A stretch of 63,925 nucleotides of DNA, filler included, from Folioceros fuciformis (lineage: Eukaryota): NCBI GenBank assembly GCA_049999805.1. It is 10 parts of 10 records of this genome, joined end to end, with 100 filler letters (N's around TTAATTAATTAA, not from the genome) between each part and the next. Parts side by side here need not be neighbours in the genome. Positions count along the whole stretch, not along the records: positions 45,706 to 51,426 come from JBNGIO010003900.1; 9 more parts are not named here. The stretch is one strand, 5' to 3'. The notes beneath the pieces are model-generated. The model was not told the DNA's origin. It did not search any database and saw nothing but the letters and a program-made list of their open reading frames with translations. The position numbers and the translations under genes are program-made. Each line of letters opens with the position of its first letter. The first letter of the stretch is position 1. Shown here one piece after another: positions 6,268 to 61,237 of the stretch.

Positions 6268-6394
6268 GTCGGGTTTTAGATGCTTAGGCAGCGAGCACGA
6301 GAGCAAGATGCAAAGACTTAGAATAATGTCATCGTCTTCATAGTCAGAGGAACGCGTTACATAGTGTATATAATAACCGCTAACCGTTTCTACC

Positions 6395-17581: not shown

Positions 17582-18187
17582 TCATGCAAATTGACTACCT
17601 GTTGTGCTTCTTTCTCTGCTATTTGCTGTTTTCTCAAAGTGAACAGCAAATGTGCGGAACTTTGGATTTCTCAGAAGCTCTGGCTTCAGGAGGACATGCA
17701 ACTTGTAGTCCAAGTGATGGAACTGCTCCCTCAAGGTATACAAGTCCACAATCACGCTGGCCACGCTTTTGTTGAGGTTCACAAATCTTCTGTCTACAAA
17801 CAAGGCATGTGATTCCACCCTAGAAATGATCTGTGTAATTGTGGCCTGTGGTGCAGGATGTGTAGTGAGAAAATCGTTAGGGTTCCCGTGGGCGTTTAGA
17901 GCAATTCTGGGGTGGAAGTTCTGATGATCAGCACCTATGGCCAGCTCTTGAGGAACAACAATTAGGTTTTGGTAATCAGGATAGAGAGTTGAAACCAGCA
18001 AATCGTAGGCCTCGAGTAGGCGATTGCTGTGCGTAGGTCTGTCCTGGTTTCTGTGAATCCAATCTTGTGTGTGTTGGTGAATTCGTTCCGCTACATTCCT
18101 GTCGTTGAGTTGTCCTCTTGCTGAACGATTCCGCTGAACGTGCTTTGCAGGCCGAGGTTGCCAAATCTTGCCCTCGTTGTAAGCCAT
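17582..18187 (-). CDS. Hypothetical retroelement accessory ORF (coiled coil), homologous to the pre-gag ORF at 46261-46608
   Basis: 201-aa ATG ORF. FLTT...IISRVESH...VDRRFVNL...VIVDLYTLREQ aligns without gaps to FLTT...LIDRIEAH...VDKRFDNI...VIVDLHDLIEQ at 46438-46608. Confidence 0.6.
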   Translation of the reverse strand: MAYNEGKIWQPRPAKHVQRNRSARGQLNDRNVAERIHQHTQDWIHRNQDRPTHSNRLLEAYDLLVSTLYPDYQNLIVVPQELAIGADHQNFHPRIALNAHGNPNDFLTTHPAPQATITQIISRVESHALFVDRRFVNLNKSVASVIVDLYTLREQFHHLDYKLHVLLKPELLRNPKFRTFAVHFEKTANSRERSTTGSQFA

Positions 18188-18394
18188 TTGTGATGGCTGA
18201 GACTCTGATTGCGAGGATGCGCCTGAAGTGCATCCTGATTTTTTTTTTTTTTTTTCTGGGCTATCTTTTAAAGAACATTTCTAAAAGGATAAGANNNNNN
18301 NNNNNNNNNNNNNNNNNNNNNNNNNNNNNNNNNNNNNNNNNNNNNNNNNNNNNNNNNNNNNNNNNNNNNNNNNNNNNNNNNNNNNNNNNNNNNN

Positions 18395-19599: not shown

Positions 19600-19949
19600 G
19601 AGTAGCTGTAGAGTGTATGCTTCTTTGGGTAGATGTTGAGTTCTGTGCCCGTACATTGTACATTGAAAGACCTTATCGAAGGTGATGAATAAAATTTTTT
19701 GTACCCACTCTTCATTTTCACGGTGACTTGAGTTGGAGGGAGAGGGTGAGGGTGTCGGCTAGTCAATGCCCTCTCCCTGTAACTCAACTAACTGTCACCG
19801 TATAATCCGTGTTTTAGACTTGTCGTAAGCAAGGAAGAGGGTGTGTGATAAACAAGCACGTTCGATTTTGCGTGTGTAAAGAAGGGTGTCTTTTTTGTCA
19901 AGAAGGTCTACCCCCCTTCTAAGAGGGTCACGACATTCACCCCCTTGCA

Positions 19950-22602: not shown

Positions 22603-23871
22603 TGTGGTGTGATTTCTTGCACCCAAGAACCACCCAAGGGCCACACATCCCCTTATTGTCGTTGCAGTCTTATGGTTTGCTCCCAAGGGAGTGAACTAGC
22701 GCCAAGGAACACTACTTATCACACTTCTACCTATCAGCCGGTCTATAGGCCTAACCATACACACAACAAAAAGGGCTGGAAGCCTAGCCTAGTCCCAAAT
22801 CAGCTCACACAACTCACACTCCTGATCTTAAGTACTTCAACTCTTCAAGATTCCCACTTCAGTCCCTTTCTCTTCACTTCTATGCATTTCACTCCAACTC
22901 TTCCTCTCTTTTCTTCAGCTATTCCCTGGAAATTGGGACACAATGGCTTCACTCCTTGCAGCCTTCAAGCATAGTGTGGATACTAGGACTGGATAGCTCT
23001 CCAAGCTCACGGTCCTGTCCCTTCACTTCAGCCAACTTGCGAATCATTCAGCCCTTGCGGACCCAGCCACACGGATCTTGATAGTCTTGGGATCTCCACG
23101 TTCCCCTAGTGGCAAGGGGAATCAAGACCTTGGTTCAGTCTCAACCGGCTCAGCGCCCTATGCCAGGAGTCCTGCACACAAGGACCAGGGACATCGCACC
23201 ATAGACCCCCCCTCCTCAATGGCAAGTCTGGCCTCTTATACTACCCCAGTCCAAGACCCCACCTCTATCTACTAGGTTAGCCTCAGTTCACTGCCGACAG
23301 TCTCTCTCCGACCTAGCCCATCCCTAATTCTGACCTAAGCCGCCCCTAACTTTGACCTAACCTAACTCTGACTTAAACCCAGCTCTATCCTAATCGTAAC
23401 CCTAACTCTAACTTAACATCAATCCAACCTAATCCCAACCCCAACCTAAACCAAGCCTAACTCTAATCTCATCCTAACCATAATTACCCGCTACCTCTTG
23501 GACACTTATTTGCCCCTACCAACAATCACCAGTGCCTCTCAAAACTGCCCTTAACTCCCTCAAACCCCTCGGACCTCCCCTTCTTCCAGTATTGTGGTCA
23601 CCTCTTCAAAATTGACCACTCTTTCTCCCCAAGTCGTAGGATCACAGGATGGAATGTTCCATTCCCTCATATTGTTAGGAAGGCCAGTCATCCGTGGAGT
23701 GTCACTCAGAACACCCCCATTGGCTTCCCCCTGACAACAAGCTACTATCCTGGCAACCCGCTCCACCACCATCAAGCTTCCCGCAGCCTCTCGGACTTCC
23801 CTTGGCTAGTTCCTCTATTGGAGCCACCTTCACTTGCCAGTGCTTAGCACAACCGGGTTCCAATTCTGGCT
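22603..23871 (+). mobile_element. LTR-like element (TGTGG terminus) inserted into the copia; close relative of 39320-40615
   Basis: Starts TGTGGTGTGATTTCTTGCAC. Extensive similarity to the reverse complement of 39590-40615, for example CCACGTTCCCCTAGTGGCAAGGG. Confidence 0.75.
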
Positions 23872-24036
23872 NNNNNNNNNNNNNNNNNNNNNNNNNNNNN
23901 NNNNNNNNNNNNNNNTTAATTAATTAANNNNNNNNNNNNNNNNNNNNNNNNNNNNNNNNNNNNNNNNNNNNGGGATAAGTGTGGCCACTAAAGGTGGAAC
24001 CCATTGGCAATCAGTGCCCGGGGTTTTGCCTCCACA

Positions 24037-26125
24037 GCAGCCTAGGACATCTGGCAGAACGCGCAGGCAGCCTGAATTCTACAAATCTGAAGACTTCAGG
24101 CACCATAAATCTCACTTGACGTACTGCTTGGCCACGTAGTCTGCATGGTATGAACCTCCAACATACAAGGATGCATTGTCGTGCCCAGATGCACCTTTGT
24201 GGCAGAAAGCCATTAACTCGGAGCTGGACTCCCTATATGAAAACAAGACTTGGGTCTTGACCAGTCTCCCACCAAATAGAAAAGCAGTTGGTAGCAGATG
24301 GGTGTTCAAAGTAAAACTCCGGGCAGATGGCTCAATTGAGAGGTATAAGGCGAGAGTAGTTGCCAAGGGGTACTCCCAAATTCCAGGAGTGGATTACGAT
24401 GACACTTTTAGTCCTATGGTCAAGCTGACCACACTCAGGCTCTTCATTGCCCTGGCTGCAGTTAATAATTATGAGCTGGAGCAACTTGATGTTACTACAG
24501 CCTTCCTATACCGAAACCTGCAAGAGGAAATTTTCATGCAAGTACCTGATGGGGTTAGCATCCCTCCTGCCTTGCCAAATCCAGTTTGTAAACTGCAGAA
24601 AACATTATATGGCTTGAAGCAAAGCCCAAGAGCATGGTTTGCAAGGATAGATGCTTACCTTCAGGATCTGGGGTACGAAAGCCTGAATGCATACATAGCC
24701 TGAAGCTGATACGAATGTATACATAAAACGTGAAGAAGCATCCTTCTTGGCGTTAGCCATTTATGTAGATGATATTATTATCTTAAGCAACTCGCCTAGA
24801 ATGATCTTCATCCTGAAGGGTCAGTTGAGCAGCGAGTTTAAGATAACAGCAGCAGGGGCACTTACTTTTTGTTTAGGCATGCAGTTGCAGCGAGATCGGG
24901 AAGCAGGGACCATCTTCCTACATCAAACAAAATATGCAATGCAAATATTAGAACGCTATGGAATGACTAAATGCAAGCCTATTTCTACTCCGGTAGAACA
25001 AAACATGAAATATGTGGCTCAAGTAGGGAGTATACCTGAGGAGGAAGCAGCAATTGTGGAGCAGTATCCCTCTAAGAATGGGTCAGTCATGCATCTAATG
25101 ATAGGCTTGAGGCCTGACCTGGCCTTCAGCTGTGGACTGACCTCAAGATTCGTCTCCAACCCAAATGCAAAGCATAATGATCTCATGATGAGGCTGTACC
25201 GGTATATTGCAGCCACTATGGACTGGGGCATCCTGTACAGTTCAAAAGCACACAAAGCTTTGCAAATGGTGGCTTACAGCGATGCAGACTGGGCCGGAGA
25301 CTCTAATAGCAGGAAGAGTATCTCCAGCTATGTGACTTTGCTTGCTGGAGGCGCCATTGGCTAGAGCAGCAGGAGGCAGCCCACAATTGCGCTGTCCTCA
25401 ACCGAAGCTGAGTACAAGAGCCTCACAGAGGCATGCAAGGAGGTCACCTGGACAGTGGGAGCTCTCACAGAGCTTGGAGTGCCACAAACCCTGCCGGTGA
25501 TCCTGTTTTGTGATAATCAAAGTGCGATAGCATTGACTATGAATCCCAGGTTCCATGCGCGCACCAAATATGTTGAAGTCCAGCACCACTACATCAGAGA
25601 AGTGGTGAATGCTGGAACAGTCAGAGTGGAATACTGTCCTACGGAGCTGATGACCGAAGATATCTTGACAAAGGGGCTTGGACGTGTGAAGCACTACCAA
25701 CACGCAGCTGGGCTCGGGCTCCGCGCATGGGGCAAGGACTTGAAGTGGAGTACAGCTCCGGATCCAGCAATCGGCAAGGGCAAGGCAGTGGCGGCGCGCG
25801 AGGACGAAGACGAAGATGAAGACGACCCTTTGAGTCGAACTTCTTTATATTAGGGTTCTAAGTTTCTTATTCTAAGTTTCTTTTTTCTTTAAGTTTATAG
25901 GCGAGAGCAGTTTATATATATATATATATATATCTTAACTACACTAACCCCACACCTGAGTGGGAGTGACAGGTCATATTTAATTACCTTTTATTAGTTC
26001 AGGTTAAGGTTAGAGGATTAGGTAACGGTTACAACTAATAACCGTCGCCTAGTCAAGTTCACAAGACATGTCCCGTGACACTCAATCTAATCTAATCACT
26101 TCTCTACGCTCACGCGAACATGTCA
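24037..26125 (+). mobile_element. Ty1/copia 3' half (RT, RNase H, PPT, 3' LTR 25967-26125), nested in the gag of the opposite-strand copia
   Basis: ORFs 24176-24703, 24747-25364 and 25455-25853 with copia RT/RNase H motifs. PPT GAGTGGGAG, then a TGACA...TGTCA LTR. Preceded by a TGTGGAGG-family LTR end at 23972-24036. Confidence 0.92.
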
Positions 26126-27597
26126 GTCATTAAACTCATGACGTCTCTTGAAGAATATAGTTGGGCGAGATGGTCCCACATTTCTTTAGATGATCCAGCT
26201 TCACTTATGTGCCTAATCATCTGTTGGGAAAGACCACTAATAATAATGTCTTGTGCCTTCTCGTCCTTTGCGTCCCAGGTACGCTTATTCTCCGGCCCAA
26301 TAGTAGGGCGATTGAGAGTGCCATTTACAACTTCCCAAAGGTCTCTATTACGAAGGACTCCACGCATTCGAAGGCGCCAAATATCATAATCTTTGCCATT
26401 GAATCTATCTTTTTCTTTGAAACCTTCACCATAATTATATATGATTGTTGATTTCGAATCGAGTGTGTCCCTATCATTGCCTCTGTTCATAGTTTCTTCA
26501 ACATATGGTTCTTCATCATGGTTCAGCCGACACATAGCAGGTGAAATCAAAGAGCACGACTATATCGTAATGAAGTTGATGTGTTCAAAAGTGAAAACTT
26601 GGCTGCAATATCGTCAGAATCATAATCTACATAGTCATCACGTAGAGGACTTTCTTCAAGGTTAGGAGAAGGAAATTTGTGTTCTAGCTTTTCAATTCTA
26701 TTGTTAAGTTCACAAACTTCATTTATAAGTAATCCTAAACTATCCTGAATTTGATACTTAAAGTCTTTTATGTCTGAATTAAATGATAAATTGTTCGATA
26801 AAACATGATCATTAGAGGAAATAAAAGGACCAGCACGAAGATTAGGAATATGTTGCAATNNNNNNNNNNNNNNNNNNNNNNNNNNNNNNNNNNNNNNNNN
26901 NNNNNNNNNNNNNNNNNNNNNNNNNNNNNNNNNNNNNNNNNNNNNNNNNNNNNNNNNNNTCAGCAATTTTGATTTTGTTTCCTTGATTGTGAGATTTAAT
27001 CAAAATTGAGCCAATATAATTTGAAATCTTCGAAGCAAGATAAGCAATTGAATCATTTGTTGAAATTTCCTTCCTTGGACATTGCAATTCACGGGTCTTA
27101 TGGTTTTCCTTTCGTTTTGCAACCAAATGTGCTTTCCAAAATATATGCTTGGATGAATATGATTTCATTTGGAGAGACTTCAATGCACAAATTGTGCATT
27201 ATGAAAATTTGAGCATAAGAAAATAGCTGCCTAAAGTAGAGCCTTCTTCAAGCATATCTAGAAATTTAGAAAATGCTAGAGAAAGGTAGCCATAGAAGAA
27301 GAGAAAAACTTATAGGCAACAAGCTTAGTGCTCAAAAATTGAGAGCAAAATGCTCTGATACCATGATGAGAATCATAAGATGCTCTCTAGTGCATATAAA
27401 TTAACATATATTATAGTGCTACAGCAAGTGCTTTTATAGCACAAACGGTTACAAGGTTGTTGTAACCAATATAACAACTAACTACTTGAGTAACCAATTA
27501 AATAACTGTATCAAACCCTAGAAATGAATTATATCTAATTCTAGGATTTAATAATACCCTAATGAGTAGTGCTCTAATATATTTGTATATTTTATCA
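26126..27597 (-). mobile_element. Ty1/copia 5' part: LTR 27364-27597, PBS 27352-27363, extra pre-gag ORF (about 26547-26860), gag N-terminus
   Basis: GCTCTGATACCA PBS; TGATGAGAAT...ATTTTATCA LTR; gag YGEGFKEKDRFNGKDYDIWRLRMRGVL (26110-26550). Confidence 0.88.
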
Positions 27598-27860
27598 ATG
27601 AGAAGGGGAGAGACCACCCAATCTTTTATGCGAGGTGGCAGTCGTGTGACGTAGAGAGGAATTATTCAACAACTGAGTGGGAAGGACTTGGTATTGTGTA
27701 CTCTTGCAAGAAATTTGAACATAACTTGCTAGCTTGCAAAGTGACTTTTCATGAAAAGTCACTTTAGTCATGTTGATCACTTTGCACTTAAGTACTTGAT
27801 GACCAAACTTGACCTTTCCGGAAGAATTGCGAAGTGGATTCTTCTTCTTTAGGAATTCAA
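27598..27860 (+). mobile_element. Ty3/gypsy RNase H fragment
   Basis: Translates to DHPIFYA...ERNYSTTEWEGLGIVYSCKKF...VDHFALKYLMTKLDLSGRIAKWILLL*EF. Confidence 0.8.
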
Positions 27861-30800: not shown

Positions 30801-31079
30801 AACAGGCCGTAAGGAATGCGATCCGAATGCATAGAATGAAGAACATGTAGTGGCAATAGCACTGGTGAGAGTGGCGAGCGGCACACACTAGCAACATAGG
30901 CAAGAAAAGTGTGTGTGGGACAAGGCAAAAGCATATAAACTCATGGTTGACTACATGCCTTTTTTATTTATTTCACAGAAAACCATTAAGATGAATCAGG
31001 CAAATGCCTGAAACAAGGGGTACAAGTAGTTGTGTAGGTACCTGTACACTAACCCAAGACACTGAAAATGAAGACAAAT

Positions 31080-32260
31080 GAGGGGGGGGGGGAATACTAC
31101 CCATCCTGAACCTCATTTGTGGATCCACGTATCATCACGTCCTACTCGCAGAAAGCCAGCAAATCTCCAATCCTTCCGTTTAAACCTGTGGGGAGAGGTT
31201 ATTTGGAGGTTTTCTGCCACCGTTAGCACTTGTTCCCATACGTGCCACAGTACGGCCTTGGCAGTGAACGAAGGTCTCCCACCATAAACGACTATTGTCT
31301 AATTGCTCCAAAGACCAAAGATACATGACCTACACACCAGCCCCCACCTTTGAGTAAGCACCAATGGTTTACCAGAAGTTTGGTCTAGGCCAAAGAGGGT
31401 GGACTATTCAGTGAGGACTGGATTCACCAAAGGAAAGAGACGTTGCATCCAACCTTCCACCTCTCGCTAGACCTCTCAGGCAAAATCACATTGGAAGAAC
31501 ATATGTTGGCTTTTGTGAGGAGCCCCACTACTGCATAATCTGCATGTTTCCTCCCTGGCCGCTACTAGCAACCCATCCCAACAGTCTGCATTAGGCAATC
31601 AAGCCTGAAAGAGGCACCAAACTATAAATCTAACCTTAGGAGGAATTCCGACCGTCGTCCAAAGGATGTAGAGGGCTGGCTGCCTTCTGTCGCCGGAGGG
31701 ATACGCTCCCACCTGGGGGCCAGCGGCTGATGCTACCTAACTTTCTACAAGCGCACCAAACAGAGATAAATATCTGCTGTTTGGAACTTGAGCTCCCCTG
31801 TTTGCCACTTGGCCGCGTTGGCCACCGAAAAAGATCATGTCGCAAAATCAATTGCCAATTCTCCTCCAAGCGGAACCAACATCGGATCGGAAGCTTGCTT
31901 TGCTCCTCCTAGGTAAGCCACCTTCCTCCCCGCGTCGATCTCATCAAGACTATAATGGGGCACAGGGCTGTCTAGAGGGCAGTCCTTCACTTCTACCTTG
32001 CTTCTCCAAGAATCCCTCGAGTGAACTACATGTCTTGTTTATGCAACATTACATACATACAAATCGTTTTTTGGGCCAGATCATGGAGTTGATGCACTCC
32101 CATTCATTGATTACATTGTCGTAATCAAGTTACCCAAACCAAGCAGCCACATGATGATTCACATTTCATAATAAGATTCAAGAATGTCCCACAAGTCCAC
32201 TCTATCTACATACATATTTGTGCCGTAATATCCAAATTGTAATAGAAGCCCATGGAGATT
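31080..32260 (-). mobile_element. Heavily decayed LINE ORF2 (RT remnant and C-terminal zf-RVT)
   Basis: Reverse-strand CRLC...QHMFFQCDFA at about 31480-31545 and DYDNVINEW at about 32100-32125; many stops. Confidence 0.55.
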
Positions 32261-34480
32261 AGAGTTCACCATCTTAGTCACGTGTGAGGCCAGGAGCTAG
32301 GGATCCAGCTTCTCTTCTCGTTATCATGAGAGGAACCGACTTGATAAAGGACCTAGGATCTTGCCCTTCGTTGGGTTCATGGCTCATACTCTCCGTGCCG
32401 TTTAGATGCATTCCATGCCACCCTGTAAGGTTGTGGCTCCTAACGTCGCGGTTACTCATCAATCAAATTGTGGTAGAGACGTGGACATCGCCTCCCTAGC
32501 ATGCTGGAACCAGTGGCCGTGCTCACCACCTTTCACATACCTATATAAAGCTCAACTTTAAGGATTAATCTAGAATGGCAAAATTCTTATTATAAATCTC
32601 ATAATCGAGGGTTTAGAGTTTATTTAAGAGCATGAATTTGCCCATGTATTTATGTCCTTTCTCCTCTTCGTTAGTTTGTTAGTCTTGAGCCTATGAAACT
32701 CTTGTTGAATGGAGTGTATGAAACTCTTGTTCAATGAAGTGCAAGATGAGTATGTTTCCAACTTCATATATGGTAAAAATTTAATGCAAAATATGTTATT
32801 ATTAGTATCAACTAGTATTATTTTACGTATATTATCACATTATGATTTATAAGTTCTAATTATATGAAGCCTAATTTAATAGCAAAGGTCTACTTATATG
32901 GATCTTATAATTTCAAATGGAAAATTGATTACACTAACATGTGTATATCAATTTTTAATGTTTAACTTTAGTTGAATAGAGGAAAATGATATCTGTTTTT
33001 TTTTGCAGCTTTGACAAATGCAAATATGCCCAGGTAAAATGTTTAACAGAGGGACTATCTCTTGAGTTAACATTAGATCCATAACTAATATCAACCTTGC
33101 AAGCTAGATACAAATTTAACATCTCATCACAGATCCAATTTAAGGAAGAGGAATTGCAAATAAAAAAGCTTAGAAAAGTTTGATATATATCACTGGCAAA
33201 AGACACTTATACTTTAAGAAAAAATTACAAGTGATTTTAATCTAGCTCACTTTCATAAAGTTGATAACTTGGGTAATAGTAATTAGGTAGGTGATGCTGA
33301 TTCTATATGTTATGTTGATTAAGTGGTTAACGTTGGTATAAATAAATGAATTGTAGCATTTTTTTTCTTATCATGGTTGGTTAGTTAAGAGAATCATCTA
33401 AGCATCTATACAAGTAGCATAGACAATTACTAGGTTTTAATTATACACAATACATCGTTCTCCTTAAAAACCATTAATTTGTAAACATCTTCAGCACATA
33501 AGTATAAATTGAATCAATATACATGTTTTATCCTTCTTACTTAATGCATATATTTCATATCTTTGTAGTTAGAGACATGTAGTTTGTGTTGAGTTTGTAA
33601 TATAAGTTTAAGTTGTCTTGAAGTCAATTTAATATATACATATTTGAATTTTTTTCTTCATATTTTATATGTATATTCAAAGTGCGGCGACTGAACTNNN
33701 NNNNNNNNNNNNNNNNNNNNNNNNNNNNNNNNNNNNNNNNNTTAATTAATTAANNNNNNNNNNNNNNNNNNNNNNNNNNNNNNNNNNNNNNNNNNNNCCC
33801 TCGCTTGGCTCTAGGATCGGCCAGCCATCACGGCCGGATCCAGCGCCGCCCCTGGCTGACCCACCTAGGACTGTCTGTCGATCTGGCCTCCTGGCCGGCT
33901 AGATCTGCCAGCCCACCCTCCTGCCAGCCTACTGCCGGCCGCTTGCCCAGAGGCCGCAACCTGGGGCCGCAACCTGGCTCCTACCTTCTGAATCCGGCCA
34001 AATCTAGGCCACCGCCCTATCTCGCCGGTCTGCTAATTTGGCCACCTATGCTCTGGTGATCCCTATCCACCCGACGCACCAGGGCAGCGTCCCGACACCT
34101 CCATCTCTGTCCCCAACTTCCACCAGCGACAGCCAGAGGACCCCCAGCTCGCTTTCCGCGACGTCCCAAGCTTCCTATTCCTCCGTTACCTTACCCCGAG
34201 GAACCAGAGCCCGTGTCCTATCTACCACACAACCTACCTACCCTATCGACTCACCATCAATCTAGCTATTATTCTAACCTAACCTTCCAACCTTTCCTCT
34301 ACAACACTCACCCACAAATCCAAAAAAAAAAGAAAACCTATCATTTCCCAGGGGTCTGTTCAGCATGTGGAGTCCACAACNNNNNNNNNNNNNNNNNNNN
34401 NNNNNNNNNNNNNNNNNNNNNNNNNNNNNNNNNNNNNNNNNNNNNNNNNNNNNNNNNNNNNNNNNNNNNNNNNNNNNNNN

Positions 34481-40200: not shown

Positions 40201-43200
40201 GGAATGAAGTGTTGAATCTGGAGTGAGGAGCTAGCTGAAGTTGAGGTTCTCGTTCAACTGCGGAGGTAGCTAGCACTAGGTGCTGAGAGTTGGAGGCCAG
40301 ACTTGGGGTTGGAGCCTCCTCTCAGCACTAAAGTGATTGATACTTGGAGCTGGAAACGAGGGCTGAAGACAATGCTAGAGTTCTCATTTTGTTGAGGCTG
40401 GGGTTGGTGTTGTGGTAGGAGCTGAAGATAGGACCGAGAATTCTGATCTATTGCTGTAGCACTTAGTATATGCTGATAGATAGGGTGAGATTAGAAGGAT
40501 GTAGGTAACCTTGACATTAGTTCACTCCCTTGGGAGCGAATCATAAGACTGCAACGATAATAAGGGGAAGTGTGGCCCCTTGGTGGTTCTTGCGTGTGCA
40601 AGAAATCACTCCACACCATAGCAGGGCCTGCTATGCCTGACTTAGGTTAGGACCTGTAGTTGAGTGGACGACCTCTGTGTGTGGGTCTGGACTGTAACAG
40701 GTGATGTTAAGCCTGTACAGGTTGCTCTTAGGCAGTCCCTCAAAAGCACATGTGTGGGGAGATGACTGCCTGTAGAAGCAACAGTGCTCAGAGTCTACGT
40801 GCATGTAGAAGACCCGCTATCTCATGAGTTGGCTCATGGACATGAGGTTCTTGGCCATGCCTAGGACATAAATGACATATGTCAGGTTTAGTTCAGTGCC
40901 ATCATGGAGGCTAAAGACACAGGTGCCCTTGCCCTCAATGCGTAGACTTGTCTTGCTCTGCTCGTCTGCAAGAAATACCTGACCACCTTTTTGTGTTAAA
41001 TCGAGTGTACTAAAAAGTTCCTTCTTCTTGCAGATGTGGGTCGTCGCCCCAGAGTCAAGGTACCAGCAGCTGTCGTCACTAAGAGTGCTGGACAGGCAGA
41101 CTGCTAGTATCTTCACAGGGGCCTTTGAGCCTCCCGACTTGTTCTGTCTTACAGCCACGTTTGCGGCTGACTTTTGCTGCCATGAGGGCTCGCCTGCCCT
41201 TCTTTTTCGACACTCTCTGGCCAAGTGGCTGGGGAGGCCACACCAGTTACAGTTGCCGGTTCTCTTGATGAGGTTTGTAGGTTCTCCCCTCTGTCCCTAC
41301 ATTGCTGTACTTTTGGGTCAGGTTCTTCCCTTGCGGAAGTTTGTAGCTAATGCCTTCTCTCCCTTATTCCTGAAGGCAGATGAGAAGGCTCGACTCTACT
41401 CCTCCTGGAATAGCGCACTGATCACCTCCTCCAAGGTAATGGTTGCTATCTGACTGGAGGCAGTTGCGGTAGCGCGTATCGGGCCGTTTTGGCTCTTAAT
41501 GAAGGTCTAGTGGGAGGCAGGAAGGCTGCTCAGCAGTTGGGCGATAGCGTCCACCTCTAACATCTTCTGTCCCGTCATCGCAGTGAGCTGGGCACGAAGG
41601 TGCCGAAACCTGCTGACATGTGAGGACACCTTTTCTCCTTCTTTCATTTTGAGGGAGAAGAATTCCTGCTTGATTGCACATAGTATCATCATGTTCTGGA
41701 TCTTGTATGTCTTTTCTAACTGGTCCCATATGCCATGTGCAGATGTGAGGTACTCTACCTCTGGGACCAAGTCTGCGTCTAACCCACCGATACTGAGGTC
41801 AACAACAATGGCGTTATGATGTTCCCACTTGGCAATTTTGTCGGCTGTGGGGGTAGGACTGGCGTTGGGGTCAAGTTTGGGGTAGGTACCGTCAACAACC
41901 TGCCTGACTCCCCTGGCCAGCAAGGTGGCCTTCATCCTGACTCTCCGCACATTGTAGCCAGACCCTTAAACCTGTCCTTCTCCTTGAGTTCTGAGGTAAA
42001 GGTAGGTGTGCTTGACGATGCTGCCATGGCTGGATGTTGGGCTGGTGTGTGTAGGGAAAGGTGTTGAAGACCGCTAATGAGGGAGTTGAGTTGTGCATGG
42101 GTGACCATGTACACCTACGCCGACCAACGGAGCTATGGCTACAGTGGTTCAGGGAGGTAGGCGTGCACGTGACTCCTGTTATTAAGCTCTCGTTCCCTTA
42201 GTGGTTGATGTTAGGACATAGGTGGCGGAGCCTAGCTGGGCACAGAGTTCGGGTGCCATTGGGAACTAGGTCCTGCGCCCAGTTGAAGTCTTCGCCACTT
42301 ACGCCTGCAGCATCGGTGCACCTCAGGTGACGGGGAGCTAGCCCGGCCTGTAAGGCCCGCATGGGGCAAATAATATTTATTGCTATTTCTTCCAAGGGGG
42401 CTGGCCGAAGAGGTGAGCCCTAGGGTTTGAGTCTAGGTGGGCCGTTACTAACCGTCATGTCCCAGCAGCGTGAAGAGGTTCACCAGGTGGCCCAATGGGG
42501 AGGCGTCGAGGTCGATCTCGGCGAGGGGCGTAAAGCTCGTCGCGTCAGTTCGCATCTGGGACGCCGAACCTGCCCGTTCGCCCGGGTCGGTGCTCCCTGG
42601 CAGCGGAAGTGTCTAGGGCCTGAGGCCGTCTGATCCCGAGGTGGTAAGCGAATCCCCTGAATTTTGCCTCTGTTGATCAAGGTTCTTAAGGAAATTTGCG
42701 ACCTGGTAGATGCTCTCACGGATTTTGTTAGTGGTGGGAGATTCAGGGGTTTTAAGTTCGGGGTCGGAGCTAGGGCGTGGATTCTAGAGGATTCTAGAAG
42801 CCTGATACGAGAGCAAACTGGACAGCAATCCCTCCACGCAGCTGAGGATACTCTGAGACCTGTCAAGAATCTTCCTCAGCCCTTTGTGTGGGTTGATGTC
42901 TACGTTGCGCTAGTGTGTGGCAGGTGTTCCAGGTGCTGGCAAGGTCCCCTAGGCATTGAGTGAGTAACGCGCCGGCGTGGGTTGTTCGCAGGAACAGTGC
43001 GTGACAGAGGCGCGGCCGCGTTGCAGGGGGAATTGCTGGCACTAGGGAGGAGACTACTGCTGCCGCGGGCGTCGGGCTCTCCCTCTTCTAGGGATGCGTG
43101 CACTTTCTGCGGAGAGGTGCGCTGAGTGATCAAGTGGGCAGCCTGCGGAGTCGAGTCCCTTTGCAGGCAAGCACTCGAATCTGCTCCTACTGGAAGCGCC

Positions 43201-43473
43201 TTGCCTCGGCATGATTCCAGGATTCCTCTGGGGGTTTCAGCATGGCTTTGATACCATGAGAACAATGAGATTAGGGAGCATAGCAACTCTCAGAGCGATT
43301 CTCCTGTGTATTTGCAATTGAATAAATAAAAGATGTCTTTCTATATCAACGTCCAAACTTAAATATTAATTATCATGTCTACTTGACTTACTCTATAGGG
43401 TCGCACCGTTTCGTCTGGGTTTACCCCATATATTAGCCTAAATATAATTAAGGGTGCTACATAAGCTTTAACA
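37288..43473 (-). mobile_element. Ty1/copia, 5' LTR to mid-RT, with an about 1.2-kb leader carrying a decayed extra ORF; interrupted by two nested insertions
   Basis: PBS GCTTTGATACCA 43245-43256; LTR from 43257 (right end approximate); gag 41507-42028; knuckle/protease WYLDSGATTH; integrase PQQNGVSE; RT QIDVCTAFLYG. Confidence 0.9.
39320..40615 (-). mobile_element. LTR-like insertion (TGTGGAG-terminus family), probably a solo LTR, inside the copia GAG-pre-integrase region
   Basis: Copia coding resumes on both sides (IWHARLGHV on the left). Similar to 22603-23640. No clean TSD was found. Confidence 0.7.
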
Positions 43474-45605: not shown

Positions 45606-46260
45606 NNNNNNNNNNNNNNNNNNNNNNNNNNNNNNNNNNNNNNNNNNNNTTAATTAATTAANNNNNNNNNNNNNNNNNNNNNNNNNNNNNNNNNNNNNNN
45701 NNNNNGTTTAGTTAAGCCAAAAGCTTCATAACATGCCTTTTCATGAGGGTTACGTTGTTTGATTAGGTCAAGATGTTTCAAATGTGACTTAAGTTATTTT
45801 CATAACACATATATATACTAATGTATTCTTGACATAATGTAATTATCTTATATGTTTAATTGATCTATATCTACCTAAATTTGTTAGGTATCAGAGAGCA
45901 ATATGAGAGCAGTAGGATGCAGGTTGTGTTGTAATGAATGCACATTTAAAAATGCATTTGAAAGAATGCATTTATATTATTTTCTTGTTTGTTTTGATTT
46001 AGAAATAAATTTTCTTGATCAAGAAACATGAAATATAAAGAACATATTTTTGTGTTGATTTTTTATATAAATGCACTTATAATTTCTTTTAGATTAAGGG
46101 AGTGATCCCGACGTATCCCCTCCGATTTGCTACTCAAGCAAAATCAGCAGGAATGTGCTAGGACAACTACTTAATCTATAGTCAGATTATTAGTGGCATC
46201 TATATAGAAATTAGAATGTTTAAAAGAAAATTCTAACAACACAAAAATCTGGCCTAATGA

Positions 46261-46608
46261 ATGGCCGATCGAGCGGATGGCCGGCCTCGCCTTGCTGAAT
46301 AGATTCAATATCAGAATAGTCGCAGGCACCATGGAATNNNNNNNNNNNNNNNNNNNNNNNNNNNNNNNNNNNNNNNNNNNNNNNNNNNNNNNNNNNNNNN
46401 NNNNNNNNNNNNNNNNNNNNNNNNNNNNNNNNNNNNNGGTTTTCTAACAACTAATGTTTCCCAATTACCTATTGTTGACCAATTGATAGACAGGATCGAG
46501 GCACACCAACAACAAGTTGACAAACGCTTTGACAATATCTCACATAGAATAATTGCAGTGATTGTTGATCTGCATGATCTGATCGAACAGATAGATCATC
46601 AGCTGTAG
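46261..46608 (+). pseudogene. Decayed pre-gag accessory ORF, homolog of 17582-18187
   Basis: MADRADGRPRLAE*IQ before the gap and GFLTTNVSQLPIVDQLIDRIEAHQQQVDKRFDNISHRIIAVIVDLHDLIEQIDHQL* after it. Confidence 0.6.
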
Positions 46609-48564
46609 ATAACAAGTTGCCTAACCTTGTTGCTAACATTCTCTGACTTTGCTGCTGAAGTTGTATGTGCCTAAGGTCCTAGAGAACAGACCAACAAGGT
46701 TAGTCATTTTAGCATCTTAGTATTTTGGGAGTAGTTAGCTAACCTAGGGTACAAAAGAGGAAAATGACTGATCCCTCATCTAGCTATGGTGGGGAAGGGT
46801 TTAGGGAAAAGGACAGATTTGGTGGGTATGATTACGACATATGGGTAATCAGAATGCGTGGAGGTTTACAAAACAAAAAGCTTTGGAAGATAACTATGGC
46901 CGATGAGGATTTCCCAGCAACTTCCACCACACCCACCACTGCTGAAAAGATGGAATAGGACGAATGGGTGGCTAAGGATGAAGCTACCATGTTCTTGATC
47001 CGGAGTGGGTTAACCTCAGATATACTGAGGCAGACATCCGGATGTAAAACCTCAGCTAAAATTTGGACACAACTTCAGGACATATACTCAGGCACCAACA
47101 CAACAAGTCAGTTGACAGCCTTGCGAAATTTGCAAATTGCAAGATGAGAGATGGAGAATTAGTAGAAAAGCACCTTGGTCATTTCAGGACACTTGTCTCC
47201 AAGTTGTAGAGTGCCTCTAATGAGAGTGTCAAGGAAGACATGCTAACCTTGTACTTCTTACTATCTCTCCCAAAATCATGGTCACATTTTGTGACATCTT
47301 TTAATGCTTCACATCTTCAGACCTCAAAACTGGCAAAGGCTGCAAATGTTACAATTCCAAAAACCACCTTTGCAGAGTTAGTGGGAGCATTGCTCCAAGA
47401 AGAAGCAACAAAGGGTTCCAGTAGACGTTCTGGAAAACAGCAAGCCCTCTACACATCCAATAGGGGATGTGGAGGAGGAAAACCCTACAACATAGGTGGA
47501 GGCAGTTCATCTAGAGGTGGTGGCTCACAAGGACAAGGAGCCAGCTAGAGAAAACCCAAAAGGACAGGAAGCTATAATTGGTGCAAGTTACATGGTCACT
47601 GGGAACGAGTGTAGAAATAAGCAAGCTGGTGTTCTTCGCAAGGAGGGTTCATTTGTTGCTGAAACTCACGTGGTTGTGAAGAAACAACCTACCCCTTCAG
47701 CCCTCACAGAAGGTACACGAGTTTTTGCAAGTTCATACTTGCTTCCTTCCTGCTTGCCTATCAACAAAATTAGAGGTTAGACCAGTTGTGGACTGGTACT
47801 TAGATACACGTGCTACAGCCCACATTTGTTTCGACAAAGGATCTTTTCAAACATATCAGTCAGCTAAGGATCAATATGTTTACCTAGGTGATGACAAATC
47901 CCTAGTGTCCCCTGGTCGTGGCACAATAGACTTATCAGTTCCGTTAGGTGTAGTACTAACTCTACATGACGTTTATTATGGGCCAGACATGACTAGAAAT
48001 AAATTTAATTTCAGTCAGAAAGTTGAATGCTGACAATAATTGTCACATAATATTCACGAGAACAGAATGTCAACTGCTCGATGCATTTGATCATAGGAAG
48101 ATACTTGCCTATGGTTCTCAAGACCATGATTTGTTTCGTCTTCATATTAATAGTGGTGTCCCAACTTCTCACTTCACTCGAGACGTCACCAATGTGTCTG
48201 CACAACAAATCGACAAATCTAAGTTGTGGCTTGCGAGGTTAGGTCACCCTCACACAACAAAACTACAGAGGTTGGCTGTTAGTGACTTTTACCAAGATGG
48301 ACCAATTGGAACATTGGCTCCCCTTCCACCTTGTGAATCTTGTGTTCTTTCCAAGAGACATCAAGCTGCTTTTAAGAATAAAGCACCTCACAAGGCTTCA
48401 GAGGGTTGAGAACTTGTTCATACAGATCTGTGTGGCTCACTCTCACAGGACTCTATAGGTGGTGGGAGAAACTTCCTTACTTTTTTAGATGACAAAACCA
48501 GGTTTGTCACCACCTACATCCTAGAGCAGAAAAGTGAGTGTTTTAGACATTTCAGAGATCACCT

Positions 48565-48960
48565 TGTTGAGATGTCACCCCCGCCATGCTCAAAAGAGGT
48601 TAAAACAAGTTAGTTGAAGCAAGATGCAGAATCCCAAAAATAAGAGCACTATAACAAGGCTCTTAAACTCAAATAAAAGGAGAATTACAAAAACAACACA
48701 ATACAAGTGAAGAGGGAGTTAGACTACTAATACTAGGTGGGTTCATCCCTTCTTTTATGGACTTATGGGTGGCACTCTCATTTCGTGCCCAATATGGGAT
48801 AAATGACCCCAAACCCTACAATACCTTTTTGCCTAACATAACAAAGTCTAATAAGCTATATATATATTAATCATAACCTTAATCACTCTTACCACTAATT
48901 AGTACAAACTCAATAAGCTTGATTAGCACTAATTAATCTCAACATTAATCATGCTTAACA
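48565..48960. mobile_element. Solo LTR with a 5-bp target-site duplication
   Basis: TGTTGAG...CTTAACA termini; flanks CACCT (48560-48564) and TACCT (48961-48965). Removal restores integrase FRDYLKYAER. Confidence 0.9.
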
Positions 48961-50957
48961 TACCTCAAGTATGCTGAAAGGTGGATTGGGAAGCAGCTTA
49001 AAACATTGAGATCAGATAATGGGAAAGAGTTTACCTCAAATGAATTTCAGGCTTTCTGTGTGGCTGAAGGCATTGGTCAACAACTAACAATTGTCTACAC
49101 TCCTCAATAGAATGGAGTCGCTGAGCGCCTTATCCTAACTTTGCAATAGATATATCTTCCTTGCTACATCATGCTTCGCTTCCCTTGTCATATTGGGCAG
49201 AAGCCATTATGACTTCAACATATCTCAAAAACCGGCTACCCACAACTTCTGTTGTTGGCCAAACCCCTTATGAGGCCTTCACAAGTCGCAAACCATTAGT
49301 TCAACACTTGCAAACTTTTGGTTGCGTGGCTTATGCCTTCATGCATAAGGAGAAGAGGAAAAAGCTGTCAGATAAGGCTAAAAAGGTTCTCATGTTAGGC
49401 TACATAGAAGGAATCAAAGCCTACAAGCTTTATGATGTCCGTCAGAACAAGATTGTGTTTGCGAGAAGTGTTACTTTTGATGAAAGTTGCACCTAGGCAT
49501 CAGTGGAATCTGTTGAGGATCCTGTCCTCAACGATAATGAAGACTTAACAGGTTTTGTTGCTTCACATTTTGATCAAACAAATCACGGAACTCAGCCTGT
49601 TCAACCTGAGAACATTGTTCCTGCAGGTGGGAAAGACATAGCAGATTTTGATTTTGTAGACACGAACGAGGCAACCCGAAACCATACCTATGCTTGAAGA
49701 TCCAAATCATCCAGTCTTACATGAACAACATCCTCCTATTGCTGCAGAAGAACAGAATGCTCAAGCAATACTGGAATTGGATGATGATCCTAGTTCCACC
49801 CAGCTTGTACAGGAACCTCAGCCTACAGAACCATCTAGACAATATCCATCATGTCAGAGGCAACCTCCATATTATTACCATGCACCCGAATTTAGAGTCA
49901 CTTCCTCACATGTGGAAGTTAATGCTACAATGTCCCTGGATCCTGTCGAACCACAATCCTATCGAGAGGCGTTGAGTAGACCTGACCACATCGAGTGGGA
50001 GAAAGCTATTCAGTCAGAATATGACTCTTTAATCAAAAACGGCACATGGGAGCTTGCAAAATTGCCACCAGGCAGAAAGTTGGTTTCTTGCAAATGGGTC
50101 TTCAAGTTGAAAGTAAAGGCAGATGGTACCTTTGACAGGTACAAGGCTCGCTTGGTCGCAAGGGGGTTCTCTCAAGTCTGTGGACTGGACTATCTTGAAA
50201 CTTTCGCTCCAGTAGTCAAGCTTGCCACCCTTACAACAATCCTTGCCATATCCACACACTATGATTATGAGCTGCAAACGTATGATATCAAAACAACATT
50301 TCTACATGGGAAATTGGACACAGAGATATACATGCAGCAGCCTCCAGGATATGAGGTAAAAGGAAAAGAGAATCATGCTTGCCGGCTAATTAAATGCTTG
50401 TATGGCTTGAAGTAGTCAGCTATGAAATGGAACGCAGCTTTAGATACAGAGCTACTGGAGTTAGGCTTCACCAAGAGCAAGGTGGATAGCAGTATGTATG
50501 TCTACTTAAAGGGAGACGTGATATGCTACCTTGCAATTTATGTGGACAACCTAATACTCTCCAGCAATAGCCAAGTCTTTATAACAAGTATCACAAATAT
50601 GCTAGCCACAAAATTCAAGATGCCTAGCCTAGGCCCCTTATAGAGCTACCTAGGTATTCATATTCAAAGAAATAGACAGACTCATGTAATGACACAATCT
50701 CAGCCACGTTACCTTATGGATAGTGCTGAGCAGTTAGGCCTTAAGGATGCGAAGCCTGCTTCTACCCCTTTGCCCACAGGACTTAAGCTTAGTTGGAGTA
50801 TGTCTCTTTCTACACGGGTAGAAAAGGATCAAATGTCAAAGATACCTTACACAAAGGAAGTAGGTAAGCTGATATATGCATCGAATACAACAAGGCTTGA
50901 GGTAGCCTATGCAACGAGTGTTTTATCACAGTTCTTGGAAAATCCAGGTCCAGAACT

Positions 50958-51426
50958 GTGAACCTCCAAAGTTTGGGGTAGTAGTTTGTTTTGGTTGAAA
51001 AAGGGTTAATAGTGGTATGGTTTGGTTTTCTTTTTCAACTTATTTTTCCTAATTTTCCTTGATTTTCTGGTTATTTTTCCTATTTTTCTTTGTGCTAACT
51101 GGGTTAATTGACCAGGAAATAGTGGGTTTGGTTATAAGAGTGGGTATAGGTTTGGTCCCAGACCTGAGAAGGTTTAGGTACGGTACCAGGCCATAGGGTT
51201 GGGTGATTAGTTTAATATTAATTAAAGATATATAATATTAAATGATTAAATAATATAATAATATTAAAATAATATAATAATATAATAATGGTTTGAACAT
51301 AGGAACGGGTATCTGGGTATGTCAGTGTCAGGGGTCAGGGTCTGACGATAGGCTAGCTGATTGCTTGGCTGACATGAACGGCTGTGGAGGCCATGCGCTA
51401 GCTAGAGCTAGAGGCAGGGGTTGCAG
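50958..51426. mobile_element. LTR end; near-identical copy at 60848-60985
   Basis: Both start TGTGAACCTCCAAAGTTTGGGGTAGTAGTTTG and interrupt unrelated sequence. Confidence 0.8.
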
Positions 51427-51525
51427 NNNNNNNNNNNNNNNNNNNNNNNNNNNNNNNNNNNNNNNNNNNNTTAATTAATTAANNNNNNNNNNNNNNNNNN
51501 NNNNNNNNNNNNNNNNNNNNNNNNN

Positions 51526-52879
51526 NCCCCAGCACCCTAGGGTCAGTCTTCCATGGCCGAGGAACCATTTCGGCTGGGAGCTGATCCCGCTGAATAAGCT
51601 ACCGTTTTCAGGCTAGGTTCCGGCTGCTGATCCCACTCCTTCCCACCTCTTCTCTATCTTTCCCATTGCGCATGCTCCTCCCCTAGAGGCTGGCTCAGCC
51701 ACCAAGGGTGAACAGTTGCAGGGGAAGACTAGCGGGCGACCATCCAGCAAGGAAGAGGCGGCGTCCGCAGATCTTTGAAGATCAGACATCCTCCGAAGTC
51801 TGTGGATAGTCTAAGAGGTGGTAGATCCTTGTGGTGGTAGGGCCAGAAGCTCATTGGTGGCAGGATGTGCTAGAAGTCTAAATAAGTGGCTGGTGATAGC
51901 CGGCTAGGCTAGTGGTCCTATTAAAATAATATTTCTCAAGTAAGAGAGAGGTGAAGTCAGAGAGAGAGAGAGGCTCCTACAAGATCAGGTGAGCCTGTAG
52001 GAGGAGGGAGTCATTCACTTTTGGGAGTCAGTCTATCTCTTTGTGAGCTCTTGGAGGTCCTTTCTTCATGAGCTCTTGTGGTCTATCCCTGCTTGGTTTA
52101 GGACCTGCAGTGTGTTGCCGGCTGTGCAACGTCTGGTAGGATCGCAAGCCGTGTGTTGCCGGCTGTACAGTGTCTGGTAGGATTGCAGGCAGCGTGTTGC
52201 CGGCTGTACAGTGTCTGGTAGGATCGCGGGTAGCGTGTTGCCGGTTGTGTAGTGTCTGGTAGGATCACAAGGTGTAATGACCAGGGTGAAGGGGCTTGCC
52301 CCTAGCTCTTGATTGTAAAGGGTGTGTCTTTCTCTCGACCTGTCCACTCTTGTTCCTTGCTTGGTCAAGTGCTGTAGGCCGGCCATGTCTCATGGCGTCT
52401 GGTAAGGTTGTGGGGAGAAGATACCCAAGAGGGGAGTGTGTTCCCTTCTTCCTTTTGTTTGGGGTTAGTCTAGTGACTCTTGCCGGGTAGGAGGAGTCCG
52501 TAGGGAAGTGTACAAGGTAGTGGTGTTGTTGCTGGTTGCTGGTAGTTGTTGGTGTTGGTGCTGGAGCGAGAGAGTGAGTGAAGGAAGTCTTAGATCTCAG
52601 AGGTTAGAGTCGTTGTAGTGACTGGAGTGAGTTTGTGGGCACCGAGAGAGGTGCAGCTGACCGCCGGACAGCGAGGCCTGTCCTACGCCTGATCAGAGCT
52701 GGAGGGGAGCCCTCGAATCCATCATCGAGTCGATCAAGTCCGACCCTCCATCCACAGCAGCAAGGAACCCCATCGCTCCTTCGTGGGAACGAAACCCAAT
52801 GTCTCAACGACAGTGGGATAAGTGTGGCCACTAAAGGTGGAACCCGTCGGCAATCAATGCCCGGGGTTTTTCCTCCACA
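51526..52879 (-). mobile_element. LTR-like element (TGTGGAGG subfamily) containing an about 41-bp tandem repeat (about 52105-52270); its terminus recurs at 23972-24036 and 53027-53110
   Basis: Shared GGGATAAGTGTGGCCACTAAAGGTGGAA...CCTCCACA end abutting copia coding sequence in three places. Confidence 0.7.
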
Positions 52880-53667: not shown

Positions 53668-53767
53668 NNNNNNNNNNNNNNNNNNNNNNNNNNNNNNNNN
53701 NNNNNNNNNNNTTAATTAATTAANNNNNNNNNNNNNNNNNNNNNNNNNNNNNNNNNNNNNNNNNNNN

Positions 53768-55114: not shown

Positions 55115-55214
55115 NNNNNNNNNNNNNNNNNNNNNNNNNNNNNNNNNNNNNNNNNNNNTTAATTAATTAANNNNNNNNNNNNNNNNNNNNNNNNNNNNNN
55201 NNNNNNNNNNNNNN

Positions 55215-59529: not shown

Positions 59530-60847
59530 TGTGGGGGCAAACATTGCACCCGGGGGTGCTGCGAGGTCCATACAAACCCTCTTTGTCGTTATAGCACTGG
59601 GATTCGATCCCAAGGGAATGATTTGTGTCAAATAACATAGGTTTACTTACAAAGTCAGTTACTACCCAAGGTCAGTCTCTACTTACCTGACACTCATCTA
59701 CCTATCGTTCGGCTACCTCTACTCCTGTCGCTGCTCGGCTACCTCTGTCGCCCCTCAACTACCTGGACCTTGGACTACCTGACAGACCTACTCAGCTACC
59801 GGGGGAAGTCCCTTCAACCACCGTCTCCCGGCTACCATAATGACTCTTCGACTACCTCGGCTCCCAACTACCTCCGTTGTCTTTCTACGACGGTCGCGGT
59901 TTTGGCTACCTCAGTGGGACCCAATTTTCTCTTTCTTCTCTCGCTCTCCCCTCTCTCCTCTCTCTCCCCCCCTTTCTCTCTCTAACTCTAGGTAACTTAC
60001 CTCTTCCGATTTCTTCCCGCTTTTAATCGTCGCCTTGGAGTCTTTCATCTCCGCGCACTCACAGTTCCTCAGTCACACACACACACATACACACAGGATC
60101 TCTCTCTCTCACAACCACGCTGTGTCTCACCAGTTGATCTTCCACCAAGTTCTGACTCACTGTCCGACTGCGTTCGGGCCGCTCACTCCCTCACTCCTCT
60201 TGCGCACGCCATTCACACTCAGCGGCCCCTAGTCCATTGATGCTACGGCACTCTCACACAACACGCCACCCAGTCCTCAGTCTCACCTTCGTACCTCACC
60301 TCCAGGCAGCCTCTCATGAAGACCCTACCACAGCCCCAACCCGCAACTCTTCATACACCGAAATCACAACACTCTCAGCGCTTCAGACTACTCCCCACAG
60401 TGCCCCCAACTCACTCGTCTCAGTAAACGAATCAGGTTGGACCCAACCACGAGCCGCTCACGTTTCACCTCCGCCCATCATCAAAGAGGCGCAAAAATCT
60501 ACCGTCGTCTCCCGTCACACTTCCACAACACCTATCCACTTCAGCCCCTTTTGCCAGATCTTCCAATACTCTAGACACCTCTTACCAGTCGCGCACACTC
60601 TCTCGGTGCGACACCTTCACCACTCAGATTACGACCCCTCCACTTATCCACTACTTGCACACAGCCAAACCGACTCCTCAATCACGACTTCGCCATCGTC
60701 CGCATCCACGACGTCGTTCCCACACACACACCCCTCACGACAGTGACCGCTCAGGACCGCCTTCCCACTTCACAAACACACCATCTTCGACTCTCTCATT
60801 CTCACATTCACAACACACAGATACTTCATCCTTCGCCGTTTCCCCAC
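59530..60847 (+). mobile_element. LTR-like element start (TGTGG-terminus family) followed by C-rich sequence
   Basis: TGTGGGGGCAAA...TGTCGTT...TTCGATCCCAAGGGAATGATTTGTG is shared with 18685-18785 (reverse). Confidence 0.6.
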
Positions 60848-61084
60848 TGTGAACCTCCAAAGTTTGGGGTAGTAGTTTGTTTTGGTTGAAAAAGGGTTAA
60901 TAGTGGTATGGTTTGGTTTTCTTTTTCAACTTATTTTCCCTAATTTTCCTTGATTTTCTGGTCATTTTTCCTATTTTTCTTTGTGNNNNNNNNNNNNNNN
61001 NNNNNNNNNNNNNNNNNNNNNNNNNNNNNTTAATTAATTAANNNNNNNNNNNNNNNNNNNNNNNNNNNNNNNNNNNNNNNNNNN

Positions 61085-61237
61085 NGGGGAAGAGGGCGAG
61101 GTTACGGGGTGTAGAGGTGGAGGAAGGGGAAGAGGGCGAGGTTACGGGGTGTAGAGGGAGAGGAAGGGGAAGAGGGCGAGGTTACGGGGTGTAGAGGGAG
61201 AGGAAGGGGAAGAGGGCGAGGTTACGGGGTGTAGAGG
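61085..61237. repeat. 40-bp G-rich tandem repeat, about 4 copies
   Basis: AGAGGGCGAGGTTACGGGGTGTAGAGG recurs at 61091, 61131, 61171 and 61211. Confidence 0.9.

Follow-up and report, generated by a model that had tools for sequence, protein, structure and literature searches.

Do some Ty1/copia retrotransposons of Folioceros fuciformis carry a gene of their own in front of gag? The question is raised by a stretch of 63,925 bases from this genome (assembly GCA_049999805.1), called the window herein, in which a decayed open reading frame (ORF) is located in the leader of a copia element. The Ty1/copia superfamily is usually described as a single gag-pol unit. A preliminary description of the window had proposed a conserved coiled-coil ORF upstream of gag in three separate pieces of one Ty1/copia lineage: the element with the decayed frame, referred to as copy 1; an intact ORF, referred to as ORF-A; and a third copia element. 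The window consists of ten small scaffolds joined by N44-TTAATTAATTAA-N44 linkers, and additional 100-N assembly gaps are found within the scaffolds. Since the window was chained from separate scaffolds, adjacency across a linker is meaningless. The three pieces are located on the following scaffolds.

45706-51426: scaffold of copy 1.
17340-23871: scaffold of ORF-A.
23972-33697: scaffold of the third copia.

Copy 1 and ORF-A were found to be related, and the third piece was not recognisably so. Herein, copy 1 and ORF-A are tentatively read as a lineage-restricted 5' sense extra ORF of a Ty1/copia group, which would encode a small coiled-coil protein.

The carrier of the decayed frame had been taken for a Ty1/copia element, and the Pfam domains agree with this identification. 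The domains on the scaffold of copy 1 follow the order Retrotran_gag_2, Pol_BBD, gag_pre-integrs, rve, SH3_retrovirus and RVT_2, with the integrase before the reverse transcriptase (RT). Between 46959 and 50643, the Pfam cut-offs were exceeded by Retrotran_gag_2 (1.1e-9), Pol_BBD (3.3e-17), gag_pre-integrs (2e-9), SH3_retrovirus (3.2e-24) and RVT_2 (2e-37). The rve match (1.8e-7, 31.8 bits) is slightly below its 32.6-bit cut-off. Judged by the copia-type gag, the integrase-before-RT order and the RVT_2-type RT, copy 1 is assigned to Ty1/copia. It is a dead element. Its features are listed below, starting from the primer-binding site (PBS).

45886..45897, plus strand: PBS-like site of copy 1, AGGTATCAGAGA, with 2 mismatches to the tRNA-iMet type PBS; start of the leader.
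45898..46763, plus strand: leader of copy 1, 866 nucleotides (nt) including the 100-N gap; its start is AT-rich (20-30% GC), and it holds 17 ATG triplets.
46261..46337, plus strand: possible N-terminal remnant of the leader ORF, MADRADGRPRLAE, with an in-frame TAG at 46300-46302 and IQYQNSRRHHG between the TAG and the gap.
46338..46437, no strand: 100-N assembly gap in the leader, true length unknown; it hides the counterpart of ORF-A residues ~27-104.
46438..46608, plus strand: conserved helical segment of the leader ORF, 56 codons plus stop (GFLTT...IDHQL), stop at 46606-46608.
46764..50961, plus strand: gag-pol of copy 1, about 15 open pieces, broken by in-frame stops and frame changes; ATG at 46764.

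The decayed frame was found as previously described, with its ATG at 46261, its stop at 46606-46608 and the gag ATG at 46764. After the ATG, 13 codons are followed by the TAG, 11 further codons, the 100-N gap, 56 open codons and the stop. The PBS-like site at 45886, the ORF at 46261-46608 and gag at 46764 are on the same strand, and the 5' sense placement is seen for copy 1. Between the leader ORF and gag, 155 nt with stops in all three frames are present. The leader ORF has decayed about as fast as its own gag-pol, with 1 in-frame stop per 246 visible nt versus about 12 breaks in the 4.2 kb of gag-pol.

The start of the leader was located via a search for the 12-nt PBS TGGTATCAGAGC with up to 2 mismatches. 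The window gave 5 matches versus 5.8 expected by chance, and the PBS-like site of copy 1 taken alone is therefore at chance level. It stands 866 nt ahead of gag, a position similar to that in the third copia, where an exact PBS is located 816 nt ahead of gag. No pair of long terminal repeats (LTRs) was found for copy 1: no direct repeat is present at the other end of the scaffold, and only about 180 nt precede the PBS-like site.

The second piece is the sole full-length member of the pair.

17582..18187, minus strand: ORF-A, intact, 201 codons from the ATG and 232 codons from stop to stop.
17714..17872, minus strand: ORF-A residues 106-158, the part in common with copy 1.

The part of copy 1 behind the gap aligns with ORF-A residues 106-158 at 23 of 53 positions (43% identity, E 5e-13). 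No gaps are needed, as the preliminary description had stated. When ORF-A was compared with the six-frame translation of the window by tblastn, the copy 1 segment was the sole non-self match with E<1 (E 1.7e-9). Similarly, a profile built from the pair was run against the 1523 six-frame ORFs of the window, and the two ORFs below the inclusion threshold were the pair itself; this relationship goes far beyond chance. The common N-terminus that had been proposed (MA...PRxAxx[VI]Q) did not hold up in the same way. It is a by-eye likeness, with 8 of 24 aligned positions identical and a 2-residue gap and a stop inside, and no high-scoring segment pair covers it at E<=50 in the tblastn of ORF-A.

The claim of conservation at the protein level despite divergent DNA was sustained. 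The DNA of the common stretch is 50% identical and gives no blastn match. Among the 55 shared codons, 26, 37 and 19 are identical at codon positions 1, 2 and 3, respectively (chi-square p 0.0025). By the Nei-Gojobori method, the proportion of synonymous differences (pS) over these codons is 0.905, which is saturated, and the proportion of non-synonymous differences (pN) is 0.392. The 55 codons hold no stop or indel, and both shifted phases are full of stops. The codon-position identities, the excess of pS over pN and the open frame together show that the stretch diverged as protein for most of the time since the copies split. The flanks of ORF-A gave no blastn match to the leader of either copy 1 or the third copia.

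The common part is predicted to be a 43-residue amphipathic helix of six heptads with a coiled-coil pattern. At the 4-3-4-3-spaced positions of segment residues 12-54 (ORF-A residues 117-159), hydrophobic residues occupy 13 of 13 positions in ORF-A and 11 of 13 in copy 1. From ORF-A as a single sequence, AlphaFold2 placed a helix at residues 117-173 with low confidence (mean predicted local distance difference test score, pLDDT, 36; predicted template modelling score 0.18). The prediction of a two-copy complex of ORF-A residues 100-180 had a score of 0.02 and a mark of 0.32, which is no evidence either way. The oligomerisation and anti-silencing functions suggested in the preliminary description are guesses: the heptad pattern is present, and nothing bears on silencing.

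The base composition of ORF-A hints at a copia-like rather than a host-gene-like sequence. Its GC content is 0.47 in total and 0.55, 0.37 and 0.49 at codon positions 1, 2 and 3. The third-position value (GC3) of 0.49 is within the range of 8 copia ORFs of the window (0.38-0.51), and the copia RT on the ORF-A scaffold has nearly the same composition (GC3 0.51, GC 0.47). Outside the copias, with few comparators, GC3 is 0.75 in a kinase gene and 0.62 and 0.69 in two other ORFs that do not resemble transposable elements.

The features of the third piece are as follows.

27352..27363, minus strand: exact PBS of the third copia, TGGTATCAGAGC.
26547..26859, minus strand: leader ORF of the third copia, open for at least 103 codons (26550-26858) behind a 100-N gap at 26860-26959.
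26110..26535, minus strand: gag of the third copia, with DUF4219 and Retrotran_gag_2; cut off near 26110.

The gag N-terminus that had been reported as common to copy 1 and the third copia is indeed shared, with 23 of 35 residues identical (E 2e-17). The leader of the third copia is 816 nt long and contains 13 ATGs. Its leader ORF reads into the open stretch of the gag frame and stops, at 26549-26547, 11 nt short of the first gag AUG (26535). Of 2000 shuffles, 2 gave an open run as long as that of this ORF, in DNA of 32% GC. Long leaders with a sense ORF close before gag are thus present in both copy 1 and the third copia, and the two ORFs are not recognisably alike. With BLASTP, the third leader ORF matched one of the two relatives at E 24, and the other gave no match at E<=100. 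The hhalign probability is 0.07%, and the ORF appears neither in the tblastn list (E<=50) nor in the profile list (E<=10). The earlier placement of this piece in register with the other two is not supported by these comparisons, nor is a lineage seen in three pieces: one piece is shown to lie in a copia leader, ORF-A has no visible PBS, LTR or gag, and the third is not a detectable relative, even with the gag N-terminus that its element shares with copy 1. The element at 26110-27363 (minus strand) meets the 3' pol end of a different copia at 24140-25853 (plus strand); the two are separate truncated elements in a tail-to-tail arrangement.

Relatives of the ORF were also searched in the databases. 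The preliminary description had called the gene possibly undescribed, and the ORF matches no known Pfam family, including those named for the extra ORFs of Ogre, Retand and Athila. For the Athila ORF-1 (PF03078), the plant mobile domain (PF10536) and Transposase_28 (PF04195), no Pfam-A match was found in ORF-A or the copy 1 segment (E<=0.1) or in the third leader ORF (E<=0.01). Pfam HSBP1 (PF06825) matched the copy 1 segment over 39 residues with E 0.011 and 16 bits, below the gathering cut-off of 28.6 bits, and left ORF-A unmatched. Membership was rejected; HSBP1-type short coiled-coil proteins and the copy 1 segment are both heptad-repeat helices, and the match is taken as a likeness of helix to helix, not as kinship.

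HMMER found no relative of the ORF among 1.84 billion representative proteins. Three matches at E 1e-4 to 1e-3 were rejected as artefacts, being repetitive proteins aligned in 4-7 stretches. A word-based search of 5.8 billion clusters, with ORF-A at near lengths and with the copy 1 segment and the third gag at longer lengths, gave nothing. The PDB sequences gave one match (E 0.74), and NCBIfam gave E 0.04, far below the cut-offs. None of 254 pattern matches in metagenome contigs was confirmed. The best ESM Atlas scores, 0.78 for ORF-A and 0.82 for the third leader ORF, are at the level of shuffled proteins. ORF-A itself is absent from the protein collection, so the source organism seems to be absent from it, and the blank is weak evidence on other species.

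How would such an ORF work in a copia element? A small orphan gene family may be carried in the long 5' leader of a copia group, in sense orientation and directly upstream of gag. The genomic RNA would then be bicistronic, with the leader ORF translated first, and ribosomes would get past the 13-17 AUGs of the leader to gag by reinitiation, leaky scanning or shunting. The product, a small coiled-coil protein, would associate with itself or bind to Gag or RNA. ORF-A would represent this gene in a second element that has diverged; the gag of that element may lie beyond the scaffold end or may have been removed by neighbouring insertions. The leader ORF may evolve faster than gag, and the ORF of the third copia would accordingly be either too diverged to recognise or of separate origin. 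The full form of this proposal, a bicistronic copia group whose protein of about 200 residues is coiled-coil, of no known family and under purifying selection, with gag following after a few to about 150 nt, is doubtful. If true, copia would have a counterpart of the 5' ORFs hitherto linked with Ogre and other gypsy lineages, and Gag would need an unusual translation, by reinitiation or shunting across the 13-17 AUGs.

Several observations weigh against a copia extra ORF. No PBS-like site (TGGTATCAGAGC, up to 2 mismatches) is present near ORF-A, and all 5 matches in the window are elsewhere. No LTR pair was found on the ORF-A scaffold, and only short direct or inverted repeats at chance level surround ORF-A. 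From the ORF-A stop to the scaffold end, 242 nt contain no gag-like frame, compared with the 155-nt spacer of copy 1. The statement that gag is hidden as the contig ends was therefore kept in part: the scaffold does end 242 nt past the stop, but this distance exceeds the spacer of copy 1 and shows no gag-like frame. Upstream of ORF-A, a 17-nt A run, a 100-N gap (18295-18394) and an opposite-strand DNA-methylase-like ORF are found. The family has only two members, too few for a proper test of the ratio of non-synonymous to synonymous rates (dN/dS). Six differences between sequencing runs and the window are listed in ORF-A, 3 synonymous and 3 non-synonymous, which are too few to show constraint. 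No relative of the ORF is detectable in the third copia, and its conservation therefore does not extend across that gag group. In the available text of the survey of Neumann et al. 2019 (PMC6317226), no copia lineage with a characteristic 5' sense extra ORF is given among 5,376 Ty1/copia elements (summed), and the 250-codon threshold of the survey would miss ORF-A.

The sequencing depth points in the same direction. Contigs of two DNA runs were placed on the window at 80% likeness or more, and their summed depth is not a copy number. In run X1, the summed depth is 42-57 over ORF-A and much the same, 29-80, over 18866-20609; both are far below the copia RT of this scaffold, with 629-764. The flanks of ORF-A are deeper in the run contigs, with 159 to 1535 at 17340-17557 and 18430-18865. 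Nothing in the depth over ORF-A suggests a family of close copies. From these data it cannot be concluded that copia elements regularly carry the ORF; copia membership was shown for one piece.

These observations bear on the main rival explanation, which is gene capture. The ORF-A family would not be part of copia at all, being a cellular orphan or part of another mobile element, and one copia sub-lineage would have taken a member into its leader, for example by template switching. This is a serious possibility, although an unlikely one as judged here. An ORF-A without visible PBS, LTR or gag and without sign of close copies would fit it. A third copia with the same gag N-terminus and no relative is also as expected if a single sub-lineage carries the insert. 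Gene captures by plant LTR retrotransposons are frequent, mostly sense and in one or few copies, according to the available text of Vicient and Casacuberta 2020 (PMC7264820), where conserved additional ORFs are those present in most copies of a family and transduced genes are those in one or few copies, usually in sense. Host-gene transduction of the maize Bs1 type (PMC7264820), as far as described there, is similarly a foreign coding sequence in sense orientation within an LTR retrotransposon in one or few copies. Transduced pieces normally resemble a cellular donor; in the present case, the DNA identity to the sole relative is 50%, and there is no known cellular family.

Capture is also opposed by the divergence of the pair. 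At 50% DNA identity and saturated synonymous sites, the two lines diverged while both were under protein constraint, so ORF-A, which is the sole candidate for a donor gene, is not itself the recent donor. No cellular relative was found in any database searched, and the base composition of ORF-A is copia-like, as far as the few comparators go. A long leader and, in the same place, a long sense ORF are found in the third copia as well, and the architecture is therefore not peculiar to copy 1.

An explanation without present function is improbable. Under it, the sequences are relics of a once-coding sequence or fragments of an unrecognised nested element, and the 201-codon frame is intact by luck. 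The family of two without relatives in the searches, the death of copy 1, the 3 of 6 listed ORF-A differences that change a residue and the low-confidence AlphaFold2 model (mean pLDDT 36) are compatible with it. The codon-position pattern, with pN far below pS, is in contrast a mark of past selection on the protein, and an open run of 232 codons was reached in only 2 of 2000 dinucleotide shuffles of the 955-nt segment of ORF-A.

The weakest explanation, which is very improbable, is an N-terminal Gag extension that was once continuous with gag and has since been split by decay or assembly errors: in the third copia a single frame change would join the leader ORF and the overlapping gag frame, but the two are in different frames in both elements, copy 1 has 155 nt with stops in all three frames between them, and ORF-A has its own stop, with no similarity to gag in the 242 nt behind it.

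The reading of copy 1 and ORF-A as a 5' sense extra ORF of copia can be compared with known systems. In the available text of the survey (PMC6317226), 582 Ty1/copia elements have extra ORFs of at least 250 codons, which fall into 45 similarity groups, mostly without known domains, and CDD matches are given for 21.4% of the extra ORFs. The 5' sense extra ORFs are reported there for the gypsy lineages Tekay (33%), TatII (23%) and Ogre (21%). The Bianca and Ikeros rows of the lineage table hold small figures, with columns that are not assignable.

The closest likeness in that text is to the class eORF-5'F (PMC6317226), which, like the ORF of copy 1, is in sense, between the 5' LTR/PBS and gag, without conserved domain and highly divergent between elements. 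It differs in its length of at least 250 codons, a convention of the survey, which is not reached by the 201 codons of ORF-A (232 from stop to stop). It differs also in being listed for gypsy lineages and for no copia lineage as a clear feature. Of the ORFs described here, one copy only is shown inside an element. The ORF0 of Retrosat2 in rice (PMC3485330) is similarly an extra ORF of unknown function in one plant group, divergent while the polyprotein is conserved. In contrast, Retrosat2 groups with the gypsy-type RIRE3 and RIRE8 and is abundant, and the likeness is one of description only, as given in the accessible part of that paper. Among copia elements, SIRE carries an extra sense ORF that is heterogeneous, with 19 similarity groups, and present in 74% of SIRE elements; unlike the leader ORF, it lies between pol and the 3' LTR, in elements of 9.9 kb on average (PMC6317226, available text). 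A search of the full-text literature, in which subscription journals were not covered, gave no description of a 5' extra ORF in copia. Plant LTR retrotransposons are known to carry a heterogeneous class of extra ORFs, and the position found here, if real, is unusual for copia.

The surroundings of ORF-A contain other features. The 17-A run is located at 18239-18255 on the minus strand, 52 nt upstream of the ORF-A ATG and directly behind the 100-N gap. An inserted non-LTR retroelement or retrocopy could have such a run as its tail. The methylase-like ORF at 18839-19420 (plus strand), with a frame reaching up to about 18668, matches the C-terminal S-adenosylmethionine-binding part of N6_N4_Mtase (PF01555, E 1.4e-9) and is head to head with ORF-A. 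An upstream in-frame stop is present in the same frame, and the ORF may be a pseudogene or an exon, or may belong to a mobile element. The N6_N4_Mtase family is mostly bacterial and viral. The copia RT is 3.5 kb upstream of ORF-A on the same strand, and its pol ends near 20977.

An abundant repeat at 22572-23225 abuts the 5' side of this RT at 22652. Its summed depth in run X1 is 1993-6410 versus 30-80 nearby, and contigs of run X4, guessed to be RNA, cover it too. The ORF of the repeat, at 22585-22974, has no Pfam match, and short pieces that are 80-84% alike were found on three other scaffolds, at 18678-18756, 40522-40578 and 59559-59637. Run X4 gave nothing on 17340-21263, which carries no weight on expression. 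In run X3, compared with 17340-23871, C>T changes number 253 and G>A changes 210, and each other change 8-53; bisulfite-treated DNA would look like this.

Elsewhere in the window, copia fragments are abundant. At least 8 RT cores were found, with mutual identities of 36-63% and one pair at 83%. Further tRNA-iMet type PBS sites of other copia elements are located at 2377-2388 and 43245-43256, both on the minus strand, with 0 and 1 mismatch. Their distance to the gag-like frame is much shorter, about 460 nt by frame reading for the PBS at 2377-2388, so the long leader is not general to the copias of the window. At 9200-10987 (plus strand), the kinase gene is a 595-codon open frame with a complete Pkinase domain (E 9e-33) and a GC3 far above that of any copia ORF in the window; probably, this is a host gene without introns. 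Neither Rfam nor tRNA scans of the window gave a match, and a scan for sigma-70 promoters and terminators gave nothing, the model being inapplicable to a eukaryote. The linkers are listed for reference.

6395-6494, 17240-17339, 23872-23971, 33698-33797, 45606-45705, 51427-51526, 53668-53767, 55115-55214 and 60986-61085: linkers between the scaffolds.

The finding rests on two sequences in a fragmentary assembly, and its main value at present is that of a pointer for a genome-wide search when a better assembly is available. If the leader ORF is the product of a capture, it would be one more example of gene transduction, with little wider weight. If it is a regular part of these copia elements, a 5' accessory gene would be added to the superfamily, and the group would offer a tractable case of gag translation behind a long upstream ORF.

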